DNA of 64,000 nucleotides from Minisyncoccota bacterium. Its GTDB lineage: Bacteria; Patescibacteriota; Minisyncoccia; Phycocordibacterales; UBA9973. The notes below the pieces were generated by a model, which was given only the letters and a program-made list of their open reading frames with translations, searched no databases and was not told the DNA's origin. Shown one piece after another: positions 4,834-64,000 of this stretch (within the stretch, counting starts at the first letter, position 1; every line of letters begins with the position of its first letter). The DNA lies in contig JBAZYS010000002.1 in assembly GCA_041659205.1 (NCBI GenBank), positions 1,627-65,626 on the forward strand, written 5' to 3'. The position numbers and the translations under genes were made by a program.

Positions 4834-5319
4834 TTATTTTTTATTTTTAAGCTCTACTGGATCATCGTCGGCAAAACTGGTGGCGATAATGTCTGCTCGT
4901 TCATTGTATTTGTCTCCGTTGTGACCTTTTACATAAGTCCATTTGGGTTTAAATTCTTCCGTAAGGGTGAAAAGCTCTTCCCAAAGTTCTTTATTCATAA
5001 CAGGTTTCTTGGCAGCATTGCGCCAATTATTTCTTTGCCAATTAAAAATCCATTCAGTGATTCCCAAAATTACATATTTTGAATCTGAAACAATCTCTAT
5101 GTGTGCGTTTATTTTGCCTGCCTGCGCAGACAGGTGTTTCTTGAGATATTTTAAGGCTCCTATTGGTGCAGAGAGTTCCATTTGATTATTCGTAGCATGA
5201 CATTCTCTTCCTCCAATTTCGAAATGTTCTTTACCATAAAGAAATACAGCGCCCCATCCAGCAGGCCCTGGATTACCCTTTGCCGCACCATCGGTATAGA
5301 TTTGGATTTTGTGCTCCAT
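4834..5319 (-). CDS. rnhA: Ribonuclease HI
   Basis: MEHKIQIYTDGAAKGNPGPAGWG...TNNQMEL...VSDSKYV...KGHNGDKYNERAD: RNase H catalytic DEDD pattern. Confidence 0.8.
   Translation of the reverse strand: MEHKIQIYTDGAAKGNPGPAGWGAVFLYGKEHFEIGGRECHATNNQMELSAPIGALKYLKKHLSAQAGKINAHIEIVSDSKYVILGITEWIFNWQRNNWRNAAKKPVMNKELWEELFTLTEEFKPKWTYVKGHNGDKYNERADIIATSFADDDPVELKNKK
5117..5134. repeat. GC-rich palindrome CCTGCCTGCGCAGACAGG, a member of a dispersed family, lying inside rnhA
   Basis: Near-perfect 18 bp palindrome in an AT-rich gene. It encodes SAQAG in frame. Related copies are at 36735-36754, 58288-58305, 2603-2616 and 55033-55046. Confidence 0.6.
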
Positions 5320-36734: not shown

Positions 36735-36754
36735 ACCTGTCTGCGCAGGCAGGT
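36735..36754. repeat. GC-rich palindrome ACCTGTCTGCGCAGGCAGGT (family member)
   Basis: Near-perfect 20 bp palindrome just 3' of hup. It is the reverse complement of the copy in rnhA. Confidence 0.6.
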
Positions 36755-48958: not shown

Positions 48959-49867
48959 TCACTTTTTCTTTTGAGCAGAAGCCAAACGAAGCATTATTTC
49001 ATGTGCAGCAGGCTGTGAATCTGTAAAGATTACATAATTATCATCTGCGAAGATATATGCCATAACCGTCTTTCTATCTTTATCATAAAGTACTCGAGCA
49101 TTTTTATTATCTACGATACCATCCTCGAAATTTTTAGTGAAAAGATAATTTGTCTCATTTGTAAGACTAATCCCAAAAAATCCATGTAAATCATAAAGCA
49201 TTTTATTTTCCCAGTTGCGCAAAGAATCAAAAATATCAGCCGTAGAACGAACTTTAATTATCATAAAAAAGTCCCCAGCAGTTGGTGAAGTAGATTTAAG
49301 CCCAGTTAGAACTGACCCCAGCAAAAAATTATCATTAACAAAAAGTCTATTATTTACTGGAACGAAATCACTCTTAATTAAAGAAATAAATCTTCTAAGC
49401 CCTATAATTTGTTTATTTTCTGTGAGATAAACCCCTTCCACTCCTCCTACTTTTACTTTTGAATTATTAATTTCACCTAAAACAGTCTGAGCTATTTCTT
49501 CTTTCTTGAGTCCAGCAACTTCCAAAAAAGTACTCTGCTCATTAAAAATGATAGGCACAAATTGTGGGGCTACTGAAATAGTATTGATATCTTTTTTAAA
49601 AAAGAAAAAAAATAAAGTCACCAAAGCAAGAAATATTAGCAAAATACTAACGAGCATGAAAATCTTGTTTTTTTGTGATTCTGGAGATAGATTTTTCTTT
49701 TCTGCCTCGTGCTCTTCTTCTCCATGGATTATTTTCTTTATTAGCCCCTCTTTGTCATTCTCAAGAACACTTGCCATGTCTTCGGCATAAGTCTGAACAA
49801 TTTTATGTTCCACTCCTTTCCCAGAACCGACAGGTGAAGGAACGGGTATTTTTTTATCTGTCTCCAT
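48959..49867 (-). CDS. Hypothetical membrane-anchored protein
   Basis: 302 aa, one TM helix, no recognisable motifs. Confidence 0.35.
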   Translation of the reverse strand: METDKKIPVPSPVGSGKGVEHKIVQTYAEDMASVLENDKEGLIKKIIHGEEEHEAEKKNLSPESQKNKIFMLVSILLIFLALVTLFFFFFKKDINTISVAPQFVPIIFNEQSTFLEVAGLKKEEIAQTVLGEINNSKVKVGGVEGVYLTENKQIIGLRRFISLIKSDFVPVNNRLFVNDNFLLGSVLTGLKSTSPTAGDFFMIIKVRSTADIFDSLRNWENKMLYDLHGFFGISLTNETNYLFTKNFEDGIVDNKNARVLYDKDRKTVMAYIFADDNYVIFTDSQPAAHEIMLRLASAQKKK

Positions 49868-56927: not shown

Positions 56928-58541
56928 TCAGGCTCCGGCCTTGCGATCGGGTCCCTTGCCCGATCTCACCCCATGCTTCTCGTGAAGCTTTGCGACTTCT
57001 TCTTCTTCAAGCTCTTCTTTTTTCTCTTTTCCACGTAGGCCGAGGACTTTGAGCTCAGCATCACCAAGCATATTTAATGATTTTACTAATCCAGATAAAT
57101 GACTTACCGTATTTTTCTCTGGCGCATCCAAAACTTCCTCTAAAAGAGCGTTTAAAATCCAGCCCATTCTAGGTCCAGGAGTAATTCCCAGCTCTTTAAT
57201 CATATATTCTCCATTAATCTTCAGTTGTCCCACAGAAATAGGGTCACGAAGAGCTTCTTCTATCATCGCGAAGTATTTTCTTAGCCGATAAGGTGCTTCT
57301 TTTTTATTCATTCCTACCCTATCGCACTCACGGACATTCATCAATGTCCAAATATTTTCTTTACCAACTTTCACAACAATTCTTCGCACCGCAGAAAGCG
57401 TAATTAATTCAGTGTCCGAAAAAAACATATGCATACGCACAAGTTTTTCCACAAGATCAATTTCTTTTTTAGGGAATTTTAATCTCTCCATTATTTTTTT
57501 TCCCATCCTTGCGCCAATAACTTCATGACCATAAAAAGTATATTTCTTTTTTCCAGAACCCGCCTCTGCAAGCCTTCTGGATCTAGGTTTTCCAATATCA
57601 TGGAAAAGAGCAGAAAGCCTTATTTCTAAAGGCCAATTTTTGTCTGTAGCATGCTGCAAAGCATGCAGTAAATGATTCCAAACATCATAGATATGCTCAC
57701 CGGATTGTTCACATCCGATTCCCTCTTCCAGCTCTGGAATAATATTTTTTAATAAATTAAATTTCTGCAACATTACAATTCCACTTGCAGAATTTGGTGA
57801 CATAATTATTTTTACAAACTCATCACGAATTCTTTCTTCCGATATTTTTTTTAACAATTCAGAATTTTTTAAAATACTTTCCATCGTCTCATGTTCTACA
57901 GAAAAATTTAATTGGCAAGAGAAACGGACAGCCCTCAGCATTCGAAGAGCATCTTCTGTAAAACGGTCATCTGGGTTTCCTACTGCTTTTAAACTCTTGT
58001 CCTTAATGTCCTTTAGGCCATCAAACAGGTCAATTAACTGTCCTTTAGACTTGCCCGCCGAATTGGAGGGATTTAAGGCTAAGGCATTAACAGTGAAATC
58101 CCTTCTTTTTAGGTCATCTTCCAGCTTATCACTGAATTTTACCTCGTCAGGATGCCTAAAATCACTATATTTTGTCTCAGTTCTATATGGTGTAACCTCA
58201 ATTATCTTATATTCTGATGTTCCATGTGAAACATCATCCAATGGTGTTTCACGAGAAACGTTATTGGAAAGTGTTTCGCATGGAACACCTGCCTGCGCAG
58301 GCAGGCACACCCCTACTGTCCCGAAGGTATTCTCATAGACCGTCTTTTCAAAAAGGCTAATTATCTGCTCTGGCTTGGCGTTAGTTGTAATGTCCCAATC
58401 CTTTGGTTCCTTGTCCATCAAAAGATCTCGGACACATCCACCGACAAGGTACACCTCAAAACCAGCTTTCTCTAATGTAACTGTTACATGTGAAACTTCC
58501 TTAGGAATTTTCGCTATTAAATTTTTAATTGTTAAGTCCAC
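56928..58541 (-). CDS. cca: CCA-adding enzyme / tRNA nucleotidyltransferase with an HD domain; GTG start 8 nt after tRNA-Gly
   Basis: GGCVRDLLMDKEPKDWD ... TEDALRMLRAVRF ... HD motif. Carries an in-frame roughly 30 aa insertion encoded by palindromic repeats at 58218-58305. Confidence 0.8.
   Translation of the reverse strand: MDLTIKNLIAKIPKEVSHVTVTLEKAGFEVYLVGGCVRDLLMDKEPKDWDITTNAKPEQIISLFEKTVYENTFGTVGVCLPAQAGVPCETLSNNVSRETPLDDVSHGTSEYKIIEVTPYRTETKYSDFRHPDEVKFSDKLEDDLKRRDFTVNALALNPSNSAGKSKGQLIDLFDGLKDIKDKSLKAVGNPDDRFTEDALRMLRAVRFSCQLNFSVEHETMESILKNSELLKKISEERIRDEFVKIIMSPNSASGIVMLQKFNLLKNIIPELEEGIGCEQSGEHIYDVWNHLLHALQHATDKNWPLEIRLSALFHDIGKPRSRRLAEAGSGKKKYTFYGHEVIGARMGKKIMERLKFPKKEIDLVEKLVRMHMFFSDTELITLSAVRRIVVKVGKENIWTLMNVRECDRVGMNKKEAPYRLRKYFAMIEEALRDPISVGQLKINGEYMIKELGITPGPRMGWILNALLEEVLDAPEKNTVSHLSGLVKSLNMLGDAELKVLGLRGKEKKEELEEEEVAKLHEKHGVRSGKGPDRKAGA
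58218..58305. repeat. Composite palindromic insertion inside cca: three 14 bp palindromes (GTTCCATGTGAAAC, GTTTCACGAGAAAC, GTTTCGCATGGAAC) with 27-28 bp phasing, then the 18 bp perfect palindrome CCTGCCTGCGCAGGCAGG
   Basis: Read directly from the sequence. Translates in frame as ...CLPAQAGVPCETLSNNVSRETPLDDVSHGTSE. Confidence 0.7.
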
Positions 58542-58549
58542 CTATTTAG

Positions 58550-58620
58550 TGCGGCTAGGGAGAATCGAACTCCCGTCTCATCCTTGGCAAGGACGTGTTC
58601 TACCACTAAACCATAACCGC
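58550..58620 (-). tRNA. tRNA-Gly (GCC); CCA not encoded
   Basis: Manual cloverleaf: acceptor GCGGTTA/TAGCCGC, anticodon loop TTGCCAA, T-arm GGGAGTTCGATTCTCCC. Confidence 0.8.
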
Positions 58621-58796
58621 TAGTTATTTCTAATAAAAACGACCCAAATATAACAACAGAGTCATATTTAAAGTAAATCATTTTTAACTTATCAATTATA
58701 GTATTAAATTTAACTTATTGCAATTTTAGGATATATGCTTATAAAATAAGGGGGTTTTGATAATTTTAAAATATGATGTATAATCAAAAGCAATAT

Positions 58797-58868
58797 GCAC
58801 CCGTAGTGAAATGGATATCACAACAGTCTTCGGAACTGTCGTTGGGGGTTCGAATCCCTCCGGGTGCA
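58797..58868 (+). tRNA. tRNA-Arg (TCG)
   Basis: Acceptor GCACCCG/CGGGTGC, anticodon stem ACAGT/ACTGT with loop CTTCGGA, T-arm GGGGGTTCGAATCCCTC. An extended -10 box (TGTATAAT) lies 14 nt upstream. Confidence 0.75.
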
Positions 58869-59079
58869 CAATATTTGCAAATTAATAATATAAAATCTGT
58901 CCTTTACTTAAAGCTTTGTTATACAAGGATTTTAGTGAAATATATACCAAAATGTGGATAACTATGTGAGTAATGTTTATAAAGGACACGTCTAGAAGTT
59001 GTCTTTAAGCACTAATTTTGTTAAAATATGCTTATAAAATATGGACATTTTAGTAAAAGACACAAAAATTCATCAAAAT

Positions 59080-59120
59080 GTTTCACGTGAAACGAAAATA
59101 GACGATGTTCCATGTGAAAC
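59080..59120. repeat. Two 14 bp palindromes (GTTTCACGTGAAAC perfect; GTTCCATGTGAAAC) with 27 bp phasing, upstream of yraN
   Basis: Same family as the array inside cca. A further copy, GTTTCTCGTGAAAC, at 59309-59322 lies inside yraN. Confidence 0.7.
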
Positions 59121-59530
59121 CCATTAAAATGCCTAAAGTTTTTACATCTAACACACAAAAAACTGGAGAAATTGGAGAAAATATAGCTGCAAAGTTTCTC
59201 ATGAAACATGGTTTTTCAATTCTAGATAGAAACTATACAAAAAAATGGGGTGAAATTGATATAGTCGCCGAAAAAGCCTGCAGACTATATTTCATTGAAG
59301 TTAAAAGCGTTTCTCGTGAAACGCTGAGCAATGAGACATTGAATAGTTATAGGCCAGAAGATAATATGCACCCCTGGAAACTTAAACGCTTGTCACGGAC
59401 AATCCAAACATACCTTCTGTCAGAAAAAGTCTCAGATGAAAAGGAATGGCAAGTAGATTTATTGGTAGTGTTTCTTGATACAAAAAACAAAAAAGCAAAA
59501 ATAAAAGTAGTCAGTGATATTATTTTATGA
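59105..59530 (+). CDS. yraN: YraN/UPF0102 family endonuclease (start may be the Met at 59129)
   Basis: GEIGENIAAKFLMKHGFSILDRNYTKKWGEIDIVAEK...YFIEVKS: the UPF0102 pattern. Confidence 0.65.
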   Translation: MFHVKPIKMPKVFTSNTQKTGEIGENIAAKFLMKHGFSILDRNYTKKWGEIDIVAEKACRLYFIEVKSVSRETLSNETLNSYRPEDNMHPWKLKRLSRTIQTYLLSEKVSDEKEWQVDLLVVFLDTKNKKAKIKVVSDIIL

Positions 59531-60461: not shown

Positions 60462-60701
60462 AGTTTAACAATCATACTAAGATAAAATCTCCTTATTTAT
60501 ATAGTTATTTTTTAATATCTATTTGACATTTCAAATTTAGCATGCTATATTTTGTACCTACAAATATAGTTCTTTAAAATTTATTTTTGACCATTTCGGC
60601 AAAGGGTGCAGGACGTTTTATAAAAAATATCATCGTGCATCATTTGCCGAAATGGCATCTCGCTACGTGAAGTAGTATGAGATTTTTCCCAGGAGGGAAA
60701 C

Positions 60702-61340
60702 ATGAAAGTTACAATCAAACGCGGAATAGGACAGCCGGGCAAGCTCTGGACAGGGTCCAGGGACTTTTTCCCTGGGGCAGACCTGTTCATCCCCGGCTTG
60801 GAACACACTTCTCTCGGCAAAGCAGAGGGCTTCGGCGACAGAGTTGTCGAAGTCAATATCATCGAAAACTGGTCAGTGTCAGGGGCCACCACGCGTCGTC
60901 TCTGGGTTGTAAACAGAGAAGTCACGTTCACGCCTGAAGAAGCTGCTTTGGCTCCCGTCCTTTACATTGGGACCGGCGGGGTCGGCTCATTGCCTGACCC
61001 GAGCGCAGGACTACGGGAAGAGGATTTGGCTCTCCTGAAGGTAGCTTTATGGAACTGGTCGGGGAGGATCGGCGGCTTTGCCATTCTCAATCCCATCACC
61101 GTTCTCTCAGGATATTACAGCCAAAGTGATCTACGTGATCTACCCAAGGTCACGGAGGAATTCAAGTGGGTTCAGACATATGCTGGGAACGTTGTTTCAG
61201 AATATGTCTTGCTGGAGTTCCGGGGAGGAAACCTCCATCCTAGACACATACCGCCATTCACCATCTGGCCGAAAGCAACCTTGTCACCTCCTGAAAAGAA
61301 AAGATTGGAGGAGACTTTTCGACGAGGAATTCGGAAATAA
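60702..61340 (+). CDS. Hypothetical protein (212 aa) of the GC-rich insertion; no recognisable motif
   Basis: ORF with GC-rich codon usage and SD AGGAGGG 6 nt upstream. The overlapping alternative-frame ORFs are artefacts of the GC content. Confidence 0.5.
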   Translation: MKVTIKRGIGQPGKLWTGSRDFFPGADLFIPGLEHTSLGKAEGFGDRVVEVNIIENWSVSGATTRRLWVVNREVTFTPEEAALAPVLYIGTGGVGSLPDPSAGLREEDLALLKVALWNWSGRIGGFAILNPITVLSGYYSQSDLRDLPKVTEEFKWVQTYAGNVVSEYVLLEFRGGNLHPRHIPPFTIWPKATLSPPEKKRLEETFRRGIRK

Positions 61341-61375
61341 TTAGTGATATCGTTCGGGGGTCGCAATGTGGCCCC

Positions 61376-61428
61376 CAGCTGTTTCGAGATGTGTATCTCG
61401 ACTGATGAGTCCTAAAGGACGAAACAGA
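61376..61428 (+). ncRNA. Type III hammerhead ribozyme
   Basis: cugu-U|UCGAGA-ugugua-UCUCGA-CUGAUGA-GUCC-uaaa-GGAC-GAAA-caga. All 11 invariant core nucleotides are present; helix I is 6 bp, helix II 4 bp with a UAAA loop, helix III 4 bp and open, with the A15.1-U16.1 pair. Predicted cleavage after U61383 (GUU triplet). Confidence 0.6.
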
Positions 61429-61498: not shown

Positions 61499-62617
61499 TT
61501 AATTTGCCCAAGACCAGTCTGTGCCTGGATTTTTAGCATTGAAAACTTCAAAGTGGATGTGGGGTCCAGTTGAATGCCCCGTAGAGCCCACGAGGCCGAT
61601 AACTTCTCCCTGAGTGACCTCTGCACCAGTGTGGGTAATTACTTTACTCATGTGAGCGTAGAGAGTTTTAGTACCATTTGGGTGTTGAACGATTACCATA
61701 TTCCCATATCCTCCACTCCAGCCTGTTTTTGCAATAAGTACTACTCCTGAAGCAGAAGCATAAATCGGTGTACCTATCGGTGCTCCAATATCTATTCCAC
61801 GGTGTCCTGGACCATGGAGACCTTGAGTTTTCCTAATTCTAGGACCGGTAGGCAAAGGGTCTATAAAGTACCCGGAAACGCTTTGGATTGGATGTGTAGC
61901 ATAATAATTTTTATCTTTCGCAACAGCTGAACCGAGGTTTGCGGCAGGCTTGTCGCCTCCTTCATCAATCATTTCGCCCCCAGGAATCATAATCTTATCT
62001 CCAATAGCAAGCTTGGTATCTTCATCAAAACCGTTAAACTGAATGATATCTGATGCATCTACTTTATAAAGAGCGGCAATCCCTTTCAATGTCTGTCCTT
62101 TTTTGACTGTATGCTCTGTTCCAGATATAGGCAAAATAAATAGCACATCACCCTCTACGAGTTTTGTGCCTTTCTTTAAATCATTCGCTGACAAAACAGT
62201 ACTGACTGAAACTTCAAATAACTTAGCAATTGAAGCAACAGTATCACCTTTTCTGACTACATAGACACTTGTGTCTTCTGGAGAAACATCTGGAATATCC
62301 TTTCCATCAGATACACCCAGCGGACCAGTTGCAGGGACAAGGGAATTGTTGGAAACAATATTGGAATTGGAATTTGTATCAGTATTGCTCTTTCTATCTT
62401 CAACTATTGAAGCGGAAGAAACATTAGCCTGCAAAAGGGCTATATTTTGAGAGTTGCTACCTATTTTAGGAAGACTTACTGTATTTGGACTTGTTTCGGC
62501 ATAAGCCTGGTCCCCGACAAAGAGAGAAGAGAAGGAAGAGAAGAAATCTGCCTGCACTTTTCGGGTAGGCACAAGAAGAGTCCCAAACAACAACGTAAAG
62601 GCTAGAAAAGATCTCAA
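61499..62617 (-). CDS. Secreted LysM-LysM-M23 peptidoglycan endopeptidase
   Basis: Signal peptide, two LysM repeats (YVVRKGDTVASIAKLF, HTVKKGQTLKGIAALY) and M23 motifs (HRGIDIGAP ... GSTGHSTGPHIHFEV). Confidence 0.8.
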   Translation of the reverse strand: MRSFLAFTLLFGTLLVPTRKVQADFFSSFSSLFVGDQAYAETSPNTVSLPKIGSNSQNIALLQANVSSASIVEDRKSNTDTNSNSNIVSNNSLVPATGPLGVSDGKDIPDVSPEDTSVYVVRKGDTVASIAKLFEVSVSTVLSANDLKKGTKLVEGDVLFILPISGTEHTVKKGQTLKGIAALYKVDASDIIQFNGFDEDTKLAIGDKIMIPGGEMIDEGGDKPAANLGSAVAKDKNYYATHPIQSVSGYFIDPLPTGPRIRKTQGLHGPGHRGIDIGAPIGTPIYASASGVVLIAKTGWSGGYGNMVIVQHPNGTKTLYAHMSKVITHTGAEVTQGEVIGLVGSTGHSTGPHIHFEVFNAKNPGTDWSWAN

Positions 62618-62975
62618 TATTTTACTAACATTTTTATTTTGAGGTTTTATAAAACAAACTAAATGTCGCGAGATTTCCTTTTCTAGCCTTATAAAATAAG
62701 GGTAGAATTACAGGACGACCATAGTACTGCAAACTGGATTTTCTCACGATGGTTACTGTCACCTCTAGATTTCAGTCGACTTGCTCTGTACCTCTCTTCA
62801 GGAACTACCCCTTCAAGATAGCTCAAAAAGGGCCAAAAGTCAATCTGACCACCCCCTCCTGTGGATAACTTCCATTCATTACAAAATTGACAAAATAGTT
62901 TAAAAGTAGTATAATTATAGTATCTTTCAATAAAAAATTAGGTTTAAAAACTAAAAACTATATAATATAAATACC

Positions 62976-64000
62976 ATGAACGAGAAAATAAAAGGACCAC
63001 CAGCTCCACCTAGACGAAAACCAATAAAAGGAGGAAAACTCGAGGATTACCTAGAAGATGAGGATGATGGATCTATTGCTCCGACAGAACCAACACAGCC
63101 AGAAGGTTCCAATACACCTACAGAACCAGCCCCAATAGATATTTCTGATAATCCCACAGAACCAATCCCTATAATGCTAAAATCTACCCAACGAATTACA
63201 AAGCTTAATTCTCCTAAAAAACCTGATTCTCCTAAAAAAGACAGACATAAAATAGCAACAGAGATTTTTGGGCAACCTTCTTCTGGAGATGATAATTTAG
63301 AAGTGATGATGGCAAAATGGAAAGAAGAAAGAAAAGGGAAGTCTCCTGCTAAAACAAACGCATCAAAAAAAACACAAAAAATAGATTTATCCAGCCCCCC
63401 CAAGAAACTTGAACCCAGAGAAGGCGTCGCTCATACAATAGCGAAACTAGAAAAAAGTATAAAACTATTAAAAGAACAACGTAGAGAAATCGAAGAAGAT
63501 TATACTTTACCAACTAATGAAAAAGAACAAAAACTTGATAAGCTCGAAGGACAATTAGAAGATTATAGCTTAGAACTAGAAGAACAAAAAAGACTCGCAG
63601 AGGGTAGTATTTTAAAATCTCCTGCAGCAAATATTGGGACCCAGGAACAAGTCATTAATGAAATTGCAGAATTGCTAAAAAATAATCGCATTAACCAAGT
63701 TGTCATCCATGGCCAGAAAAAAATAATAGAACAGGATAGGATAAAAAATGAAGTTCTGACATTTGATTCAGATTTAGATGCGAGAACTGCATTGTTTTTA
63801 TTAAATGAATACAATAAAAAATCGCTAGAAGAAACATATGAAAAAGATGCTGTAACTTCTCTAGTTCCTAAAGGAGGTTCTGAAAAGAATTTAACAGAAA
63901 AAAAGAAAGGGCTTAAAATTTTTATAGACGTTGGTGGTAACTGGTTGAGTATTGAAAAAGATAACGAAACAACAACGATTCACATTGACCACCATGGAAC
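62976..64000 (+). CDS. DHH-family phosphoesterase-like protein with a long low-complexity N-terminal extension (partial; runs off the window end)
   Basis: Manual translation is open from the ATG at 62976 to the window edge. VVIHGQ...DSDLDARTALFLL resembles DHH motif I (compare RecJ LVHGDFDADGMTSTALL), followed by IFIDVGG and IHIDHHGT. Confidence 0.4.
   Translation, partial: MNEKIKGPPAPPRRKPIKGGKLEDYLEDEDDGSIAPTEPTQPEGSNTPTEPAPIDISDNPTEPIPIMLKSTQRITKLNSPKKPDSPKKDRHKIATEIFGQPSSGDDNLEVMMAKWKEERKGKSPAKTNASKKTQKIDLSSPPKKLEPREGVAHTIAKLEKSIKLLKEQRREIEEDYTLPTNEKEQKLDKLEGQLEDYSLELEEQKRLAEGSILKSPAANIGTQEQVINEIAELLKNNRINQVVIHGQKKIIEQDRIKNEVLTFDSDLDARTALFLLNEYNKKSLEETYEKDAVTSLVPKGGSEKNLTEKKKGLKIFIDVGGNWLSIEKDNETTTIHIDHHG

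Follow-up and report, generated by a model that had tools for sequence, protein, structure and literature searches.

The window, i.e. the whole stretch of 64,000 nucleotides that was analysed, contains a locus in which two tRNA genes are enclosed by cca and yraN. The cca gene (56928..58541, minus strand) encodes a CCA-adding enzyme with an HD domain, and its residues ~82-112 are a loop insert encoded by the repeated palindromes described below. It is followed by tRNA-Gly(GCC) (58549..58620, minus strand), by an AT-rich spacer (58621..58796), which is a candidate DNA-unwinding region of the putative origin, and by tRNA-Arg(TCG) (58797..58869, plus strand). Three DnaA-box-like 9-mers are arranged head to tail on the minus strand at 58953..58982, with the perfect box TGTGGATAA at 58953, TGTGAGTAA at 58965 and TGTTTATAA at 58974. 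The yraN gene (59105..59530, plus strand) belongs to the UPF0102 family and likely starts at the ATG at 59129 (MPKVF). Four tRNAs were the sole significant Rfam matches in the window. A structured RNA was rejected as an explanation of the palindromes, as Rfam returned only the tRNAs and two sub-threshold matches to miRNA families on palindromes, which were regarded as noise. A conserved partner protein beside the cluster was also rejected, the 212-aa ORF at 60702-61340 being found in this genome alone. The 302-aa ORF at 48959-49867 was dismissed as a partner because its sequence looks like that of a membrane protein.

A previous sequence-only reading of this DNA had listed six copies of a 14-bp palindrome around the tRNA genes. 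The repeat is real, and the motif behind it is the canonical chromosomal parS, TGTTNCACGTGAAACA. The window was scanned with the 16-mer TGTTTCACGTGAAACA, allowing up to 3 mismatches, and this gave 10 matches in 64 kb, 8 of them in 58218-59323, where 0.32 were expected for the whole window. All six listed copies are present, three as strict matches and three as close variants, but two more, at 58482 and 59193, had been overlooked. The strict pattern GTTTCNCGNGAAAC has 3 matches in the window (58246, 59080 and 59309) versus 0.00 expected, and near variants of it are found at 58219 and 59107 (GTTCCATGTGAAAC) and at 58273 (GTTTCGCATGGAAC). The sites in the window differ from parS by 1-3 mismatches.

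Three sites are located in the part of cca that encodes the loop. These are TGTTCCATGTGAAACA (58218..58233), with 1 mismatch to the Bacillus subtilis parS, TGTTTCACGAGAAACG (58245..58260), the minus strand of which encodes V-S-R-E-T, and the degenerate site TGTTTCGCATGGAACA (58272..58287). Together they make up a larger 70-bp palindrome. A weak parS-like site, TGTTACATGTGAAACT (58482..58497), coincides with N-terminal codons of cca (E-V-S-H-V-T), and relatives have a site at the corresponding position, 192-250 bp away from those in the loop. The best and strongest site, TGTTTCACGTGAAACG (59079..59094), is intergenic, conserved in position and ~130 bp from the DnaA box. At a distance of 27 bp from it, TGTTCCATGTGAAACC (59106..59121) coincides with the likely yraN start or lies just ahead of it, and is not clearly within the gene. 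Within yraN we find the weak parS-like site AGTTTCTCATGAAACA (59193..59208) and the parS-like site CGTTTCTCGTGAAACG (59308..59323), which encodes V-S-R-E-T and is 115 bp from the site before it, a distance that recurs in 26 species. The peptides quoted earlier for Cca and YraN were correct. Several copies are degenerate, with 3 mismatches, and the left half-site is poor in many of those in the loop; therefore, not every copy need be functional.

It is the palindromes that are iterated and not the spacers, as had been noted, and they make up an array of putative binding sites for a dimeric protein. The 27-bp spacing given for 59080 and 59107 holds, while the spacings within cca are 27 and 27 bp rather than 28 and 27. 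As a general phasing, 27 bp is dominant only within the frame of cca, where 42 neighbouring pairs are spaced at 27 bp and 5 at 24 bp, whereas sites in non-coding DNA are spaced at 16 or 24-27 bp. A strict 27-bp rule was rejected, since it is confined to the cca frame. Across bacteria, parS doublets have spacing modes of 25-27 and 35-41 bp.

The comparison set consisted of 80 related Nomurabacteria/Paceibacterota species with a total of 1.25 Mb, in which a zone from -1600 to +500 of the cca start was considered. Each locus carries 2-10 sites, most commonly 5, and good sites are present on both sides in 51 of the 61 loci spanning the whole zone. A consensus made from 394 sites of the 80 species, tGTTtCAcgtGAAACa, agrees with the parS consensus throughout its 16 positions, the outer T and A among them. 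The sequence is that of the canonical ParB site parS, and not that of an iteron or an operator of some unassigned kind.

Among the alternatives, the one that fares best is that the sites are operators which merely resemble parS and are bound by another protein, such as a transcription factor that regulates cca, yraN and the tRNA genes, a ParB paralogue similar to Noc, or a factor controlling the origin. We consider this unlikely. The strongest sites do lie in the promoter/5' region of yraN, the sites adjoin DnaA boxes, and a search around the cluster turned up no ParB gene. Neither parA, parB nor dnaA was detected in the 64-kb window (Pfam and NCBIfam on 50 ORFs, and tblastn), none of the 80 relatives had one of these genes within 10 kb of its cluster (tblastn), and a parB gene for the lineage was not located in these regions. 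A database search using a Spo0J probe, which was 100% identical to a database entry, gave among the matches listed only Bacillus and no ParB of this lineage. The dnaA neighbourhoods of two Parcubacteria have no parAB within 10 kb. Approximately 25% of bacteria are without ParABS (PMC7333895). Against operators, 16 of 16 positions follow the parS consensus, and sites situated hundreds of bp into coding regions, with a copy number in cca that varies from 1 to 6, are unlike operators. The Noc site TATTTCCCGGGAAATA differs at specificity positions, where the sites described here have G2 and a CACG/CGTG core. Furthermore, the motif is linked to parAB across bacteria. In a metagenome scan, 120 stretches were selected solely by two nearby perfect cores, and a Spo0J/ParB homologue was found in 54 and a Soj/ParA homologue in 69 of these. 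None of the CPR contigs flagged among the 120 loci also had a ParB.

Allowing at most 1 mismatch, 101 sites were found within the ~2-kb zone of the 80 species and 0 in the other 1.10 Mb; allowing at most 2 mismatches, the numbers were 251 within and 7 outside. The motif is confined to one 2-kb locus and is therefore not a dispersed mobile repeat. This disagrees with the likeness to the palindromic elements of Rickettsia (RPEs) that had been pointed out from the sequence. A mobile in-frame palindromic element of this kind, spreading through the genome without breaking reading frames, is in our view very improbable, as 0 of the 101 near-perfect copies lie beyond the locus in 1.1 Mb and none elsewhere in the window, each unit is 16 bp long and not ~100-150 bp, and the sequence is parS, which is found with parAB in unrelated bacteria. 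What can be said for it is that the segment in cca is inserted in frame and varies in length, and that a neighbouring GC-rich palindrome is dispersed and in frame in two proteins. This 18-bp palindrome, CCTGCCTGCGCAGGCAGG, is present at 58288..58305 as claimed. It encodes LPAQAG, in frame, as part of the same loop of Cca, is distinct from parS, and has 3 copies in the window, with an in-frame reading in both Cca and RNase H. The RPE analogy fits CCTGCCTGCGCAGGCAGG better than the parS-like motif.

The in-frame insertion between conserved head-domain residues of Cca was recovered in two ways: residues 82-112 of the query align to just 2 residues of the solved CCA-adding enzyme 6ibp, and the Pfam head-domain match is split into two stretches. 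Across relatives, this head-domain loop measures 33-183 nt, in every case divisible by 3, and holds 0-6 copies of V-x-x-E-T, with an identical codon phase in all 135 loop sites (135/135). For V..ET motifs picked at the protein level, Val is encoded by GTT in 99% (background 28%), Glu by GAA in 100% (background 70%) and Thr by ACA in 82% (background 37%). The codon before the motif ends in T in 74%, and the two middle residues are variable. Synonymous codons are thus fixed to the parS bases, which means that selection acts at the DNA level. The reverse situation, where V-S-R-E-T is functional in Cca and YraN and the palindrome is a by-product, could draw on the recurrence of the peptide in two proteins and in 80 orthologues. 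It is even less credible than a mobile element, as the synonymous codons are frozen while the middle amino acids are free, the same 16-mer is also found in non-coding DNA of the locus, and the insert is predicted as a low-confidence loop (pLDDT 26-42) that is missing from solved Cca enzymes and from the Cca of one related lineage. Chance clustering of a short AT-rich palindrome, which has nothing more than the low genome GC content in its favour, is negligible with 10 sites observed versus 0.32 expected, 8 of them within 1.1 kb, and the same locus in 80 species.

The composition of the surrounding DNA was evaluated over +-10 kb. On one side of the locus, the GC3 skew is -0.075 for genes on the plus strand and -0.057 for genes on the minus strand, and on the other side it is +0.148 and +0.159, respectively. 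This is an origin-type skew switch irrespective of gene strand, and the polarity was checked on a dnaA-linked Moranbacteria locus. The mean cumulative skew is lowest at -500..0, with the local minimum away from the locus in 11 of 28 loci. Coding sequences are co-directional away from the locus in 76% and 55%. AT content is highest (67.5%) in the 1-kb bin upstream of cca, and 57 perfect DnaA boxes were counted in the upstream bin versus ~0-3 per bin elsewhere. The three-box block is conserved in 58 species and bordered by inverted TGTCCTTTA/TAAAGGACA repeats; it has one perfect box and two with 2 mismatches, i.e. fewer boxes than typical origins. Another single DnaA box of similar kind, 3.3-4.3 kb off, looks promoter-associated. 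Judged from these sequence properties, the AT-rich region with two tRNA genes and the DnaA-box block is most likely the replication origin of the Nomurabacteria (Patescibacteria/CPR) chromosome.

The palindromes are very probably chromosomal parS, i.e. ParB loading sites, six to eight of which flank the probable Nomurabacteria origin, some of them in frame in cca and yraN. As a kind of element parS is ordinary, and it is the coding-embedded setting with variable copy number that is unusual. ParB is a CTPase and parS sites are its centromere-like loading sites (PMC7333895). Based on ParABS biology (PMC7333895), ParB dimers would nucleate at each parS, close as CTP-bound clamps and slide to adjacent DNA, and the partition complex would tag the freshly duplicated origin for segregation, together with ParA and/or SMC. 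Several sites in 1.1 kb, on either side of the origin and the tRNA genes, would multiply loading and permit spreading in both directions. Sites would be placed inside coding DNA because the genome is compact. The sites in cca would occupy an insertion-tolerant beta-hairpin turn of the head domain, where the array would grow and shrink among species by whole-codon units, mostly of 27 bp, and the V-x-x-E-T peptide would be a by-product forced by the array. ParB binding in the host, origin firing at the locus and the benefit of multiple sites are what we infer here.

Two sister CPR lineages have comparable arrangements. On a Moranbacteria contig, 15 perfect parS are packed into 1 kb lying between tRNAs and dnaA-dnaN, and in a second locus (L167) parS sites are interspersed with tRNAs, adjoining cca, at a skew switch. 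A wider reading, which we give about an even chance, is that the centromere and origin of Nomurabacteria form one compact module around two tRNA genes, unlinked to dnaA and parAB, with part of the centromere lying in the coding frame of an essential enzyme. In the Cca loop, the parS array would expand and contract by whole-codon (mostly 27-bp) units, so that centromere evolution writes a hypervariable Cca peptide, and very dense parS arrays beside tRNAs (in Moranbacteria as many as 15 perfect sites per kb) would be a general CPR way of loading ParB on tiny, gene-packed genomes. In the literature library searched, nothing relevant turned up on parS, ParB or oriC in CPR, Patescibacteria, Parcubacteria or Saccharibacteria.

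With this assignment, an odd-looking repeat gains a function, and a likely centromere and origin are obtained for a bacterial group that is uncultured and little studied. The loci supply ParB biology with natural cases of very dense parS arrays. They also present a dual constraint in which DNA binding overlaps protein coding and the selection on DNA can be read cleanly in the codons. For annotation, this means that a cis-acting DNA element can drive length variation of a conserved enzyme. Additionally, the combination of parS cluster, DnaA box and skew switch may be used as a simple origin marker for CPR metagenome bins.

In the ParABS system, chromosomal parS ranges from a single site to a few dozen, grouped close to the origin, according to Livny et al. 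(2007) as cited in PMC7333895. The B. subtilis parS, 5'-TGTTCCACGTGAAACA, sits within the parB coding sequence (PMC4333373). The sites described here are like the parS of B. subtilis Spo0J/ParB in being 16-bp palindromes, clustered near an origin and located in coding sequence. They differ in that 6-8 sites share 1.1 kb and flank the putative origin on both sides, away from parAB and dnaA, and in the in-frame tandem array in cca, the copy number of which differs by species. Pseudomonas aeruginosa has a four-site parS cluster closest to oriC, and Streptomyces coelicolor and Listeria innocua have 20-23 parS sites (PMC7333895). Redundant parS around the origin is shared with these bacteria, but here the cluster spans only 1.1 kb. 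The clustered regions of those bacteria span from kilobases to ~200 kb.

Plasmid centromeres such as sopC (PMC3597684) offer another comparison. Like the arrays of this locus, F sopC has dense ParB-type dimer sites at short and roughly regular spacing. Its unit is a 43-bp repeat that contains a 16-bp inverted repeat, and 12 of these units stand in tandem. In contrast, the spacers here are not conserved, the spacing is variable, the sequence is that of chromosomal parS, and no par operon is adjacent. RPEs are ~100-150 bp long with an extended palindromic structure and many dispersed copies. They have in common with the present sites that palindromic DNA is read in frame in genes and adds a peptide at a tolerant surface region, but here the motif is 16 bp and restricted to one locus. 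Finally, the Noc-binding sites (NBS) of Firmicutes, TATTTCCCGGGAAATA, are 16-bp palindromes that are bound by a ParB-family protein and scattered over the chromosome with the terminus avoided. The parS sites of Nomurabacteria are 16-bp palindromes as well, but they form a single cluster and differ from NBS at the positions that determine specificity.

The strict pattern GTTTCNCGNGAAAC has three matches in the 64-kb window, at 58246, 59080 and 59309, where none are expected. Palindrome copies at 58219, 58273 and 59107 are one- or two-base variants of it, so the copies claimed by the sequence-only reading are real. Widened by one base per side, the motif becomes TGTTTCACGTGAAACA. Allowing at most 3 mismatches, this 16-mer gives 10 matches in the window versus 0.32 expected, 8 of them within 58218-59323; the earlier list lacked two weaker ones, at 58482 and 59193. 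Spacings in cca are 27 and 27 bp, not 28 and 27 bp as first read, and the 27 bp for the pair 59079/59106 stands. The three sites in the cca loop, i.e. the in-frame head-domain insert of the CCA-adding enzyme, jointly form a 70-bp larger palindrome (58218-58287) centred on the middle site, with arms at 58218-58250 and 58255-58287 that are 79% complementary.

Judged by its bases, the repeated 16-mer is parS, the site that ParB binds on chromosomes. In B. subtilis, parS is 5'-TGTTCCACGTGAAACA and lies within the parB coding sequence (PMC4333373). Window site 58218 is one base off this site, and site 59079 is one base off the perfect palindrome. As an independent test, public metagenome contigs were scanned for two perfect 14-mer cores 2-30 bp apart, which gave at least 120 stretches. 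Among the matches listed, a Spo0J/ParB homologue was found on the same short stretch in 54 of 120 and a Soj/ParA homologue in 69 of 120, which ties the motif closely to parAB operons across bacteria. Closely spaced parS doublets were common among these matches, with spacing modes of 25-27 and 35-41 bp. Between perfect cores in the listed stretches, start-to-start distances cluster at multiples of 13: 26 bp, 39 bp and, less markedly, 52 bp.

A Cca protein scan using one genome per species gave 80 loci from Candidatus Nomurabacteria/Paceibacterota (Patescibacteria, CPR), each taken with up to 10 kb per side of cca. Nearly all parS-like sites occupied two zones, one inside cca (about +220 to +310) and one upstream, 480-1400 bp away from the gene. 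With at most 1 mismatch, 101 sites fell within -1600 to +500 of the cca start versus 0 in the other 1.10 Mb; with at most 2 mismatches the numbers were 251 versus 7 outside. Each locus carried 2-10 sites (mode 5), and in 51 of the 61 loci covering the whole zone good sites were present on both sides. The architecture is constant across loci. It runs from yraN, which contains two or three parS-like sites (26 species share a spacing of 115 bp) and has one or two strong sites at its 5' end, through roughly 130 bp of conserved DNA to a DnaA box and two tRNAs, and then to cca, where a weak N-terminal site occurs in addition to those of the loop. Together with the confinement, the constant architecture rules out a dispersed mobile repeat.

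In the window, the locus consists of cca, encoding a CCA-adding enzyme with HD domain (56928-58541, minus strand), tRNA-Gly(GCC) (58549-58620, minus strand), tRNA-Arg(TCG) (58797-58869, plus strand) and yraN, encoding a UPF0102/YraN protein (59105-59530), with tRNA-Pro and tRNA-Gly(TCC) downstream of yraN. All tRNAs were identified using ARAGORN and Rfam. The tRNA-Gly(GCC)/tRNA-Arg(TCG) pair (58549-58869; -80 to -900 from cca in the relatives) occurs in two orders and orientations between species (the window and locus L013 versus L001), a small inversion at the putative origin, and the spacer separating the two tRNAs measures between about 150 and 800 bp. Upstream of both tRNA-Arg (58733-58763) and yraN (59026-59056) lies a directly repeated 31-nt sequence, ATATGCTTATAAAATA..., probably the same promoter twice. 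The stretch 60500-61400, where ORFs overlap and GC content is 0.44 versus about 0.36, is probably an insertion specific to this strain; its 212-aa ORF (60702-61340) has no family match and is missing from 80 of 80 relatives.

Residues 19-81 and 113-269 of the window Cca align to 50-113 and 116-264 of the solved CCA-adding enzyme 6ibp, and the gap therefore corresponds to about 29 extra residues. Including 80 orthologues, loop length is 33-183 nt and a multiple of three in every case, which bears out the in-frame insertion read from the sequence; the peptides quoted there are also correct. Loops hold zero to six V-x-x-E-T copies, the shortest form being IQEDVSRETLR with one site, and all 135 of 135 loop sites share one codon phase. 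We compared codons of V-x-x-E-T motifs, chosen at protein level only, with the rest of cca as background. Val is GTT in 99% of motifs (background 28%), Glu is GAA in 100% (70%) and Thr is ACA in 82% (37%), and the preceding codon ends in T in 74%; the middle pair of residues is highly variable (S/I/N/P/T with R/Q/H/C). The codon test shows that selection on the loop motifs acts on the DNA. AlphaFold gave a model of moderate quality (mean pLDDT 65) in which residues 84-108 form a low-confidence loop (pLDDT 26-42) linking strands 76-81 and 111-118. Other recurring in-frame segments, GC-rich ones among them, are common to several species and are found in the relatives' loops (about +230 to +420 from the cca start), for example LSAKALAS(A/E)EET, SPQPSPCKGEGE and PSLILPL-KGEMPKAEGV, a sign that this loop may have taken up more small insertion elements.

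Two of the metagenome stretches belong to sister lineages. L113, assigned to Candidatus Moranbacteria by its DnaA relatives, carries 15 perfect parS sites of 16 bp within a non-coding 1 kb (1044-2027), between tRNA-Arg/tRNA-Ala and dnaA-dnaN-dciA, far denser than is known from model organisms. At a GC-skew switch in L167 (3871-4262), just past the 3' end of cca, tRNA-Pro, tRNA-Val and tRNA-Ala are interspersed with five parS sites. The L167 Cca, about 51% identical and from a related lineage, has no loop insert, its Pfam head-domain match being a single stretch, so the loop array looks derived, a trait of the Nomurabacteria group. Judging from these two arrays, densely packed parS sites next to tRNA genes seem to be a recurrent origin feature among CPR bacteria.

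The 64-kb window contains no parA, parB or dnaA gene, none of the 80 relatives has one within 10 kb of its cluster, and no ParB-bearing CPR contig was among the loci examined; the ParB protein matches listed were all from Bacillus. For skew analyses within ±10 kb, every locus was turned to put cca on the plus strand. Upstream of cca, GC skew at third codon positions is -0.075 for plus-strand genes and -0.057 for minus-strand genes, against +0.148 and +0.159, respectively, on the cca side; as both gene strands change alike, the switch is independent of transcription direction. The negative-to-positive polarity is of origin type and is the same at the dnaA-linked locus of the Moranbacteria contig. 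Coding sequence is co-directional away from the locus (76% and 55%). Mean cumulative skew is V-shaped with its minimum at -500 to 0, and of the 28 loci fully covered over ±8 kb, 17 have their minimum within -1000 to 0. The 1 kb upstream of cca has 57 perfect DnaA boxes, where bins of 500 bp elsewhere have about 0-3 each. When 58 species were aligned, a conserved block emerged, TTATAAACA-TTACNAACA-tag-TTATCCACA, flanked by inverted repeats TGTCCTTTA/TAAAGGACA; in the window its DnaA boxes lie at 58953-58982, only one being perfect. By composition the cca/tRNA locus thus behaves like a replication origin, and it is rated a probable one. It falls short of proven because no more than one of its boxes is perfect, because another lone box of this type stands ahead of a TTGACT promoter element, and because the scope was ±10 kb.

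That second conserved perfect box, AGTTATCCACA (about 62859-62867, between 61499-62617 and 63047-63403), occurs 3.3-4.3 kb from cca in about 20 species; the promoter-like element follows roughly 8-16 nt past it, upstream of a LysM/M23 peptidase gene, and the box may mark a DnaA-regulated promoter. At 58898-59064, the inverted 9-mers bracketing the DnaA boxes, and TGTCTTT/TAAAAGACA closer to yraN, may be sites for another origin- or promoter-binding factor.

In characterised systems, ParB dimers nucleate at parS, turn into CTP-bound sliding clamps and spread; the partition complex they build makes contact with ParA and SMC and, once replicated, is the first part to be segregated (PMC7333895). 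By analogy with characterised ParABS systems, this locus is a candidate site of ParB loading. Several close parS sites flanking the origin would raise the loading rate, and sites on both sides would let clamps spread both ways past likely roadblocks, i.e. DnaA complexes and heavily transcribed tRNA genes.

The locus differs from a plasmid iteron array in having no fixed period, conserved spacer or adjacent par operon. The likeness to Rickettsia-type palindromic elements, drawn earlier for the 14-bp palindrome, fails on dispersal (101 sites in the locus against 0 elsewhere in 1.10 Mb) and on size. It fits better with the GC-rich 18-bp palindrome CCTGCCTGCGCAGGCAGG adjoining the cca-loop sites, a different element from the parS motif, with three copies in the window (5117-5134, 36736-36753, 58288-58305; 0 expected). 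Cca and RNase H each read through this palindrome in frame, as LPAQAG and LSAQAG respectively, its remaining copy lies directly past a stop codon, and it is sporadic in relatives (L005, L006 and L063 only); it looks like a small dispersed hairpin element tolerating in-frame insertion. The literature searched yielded no account of parS, ParB or oriC from CPR bacteria. Agreeing with chromosomal parS in sequence, clustering and proximity to the putative origin, the repeated element is, as far as sequence comparison goes, an already known kind of site. What is unusual here is the site density, the lack of linkage to parAB/dnaA and an in-frame, copy-number-variable array within an essential gene.
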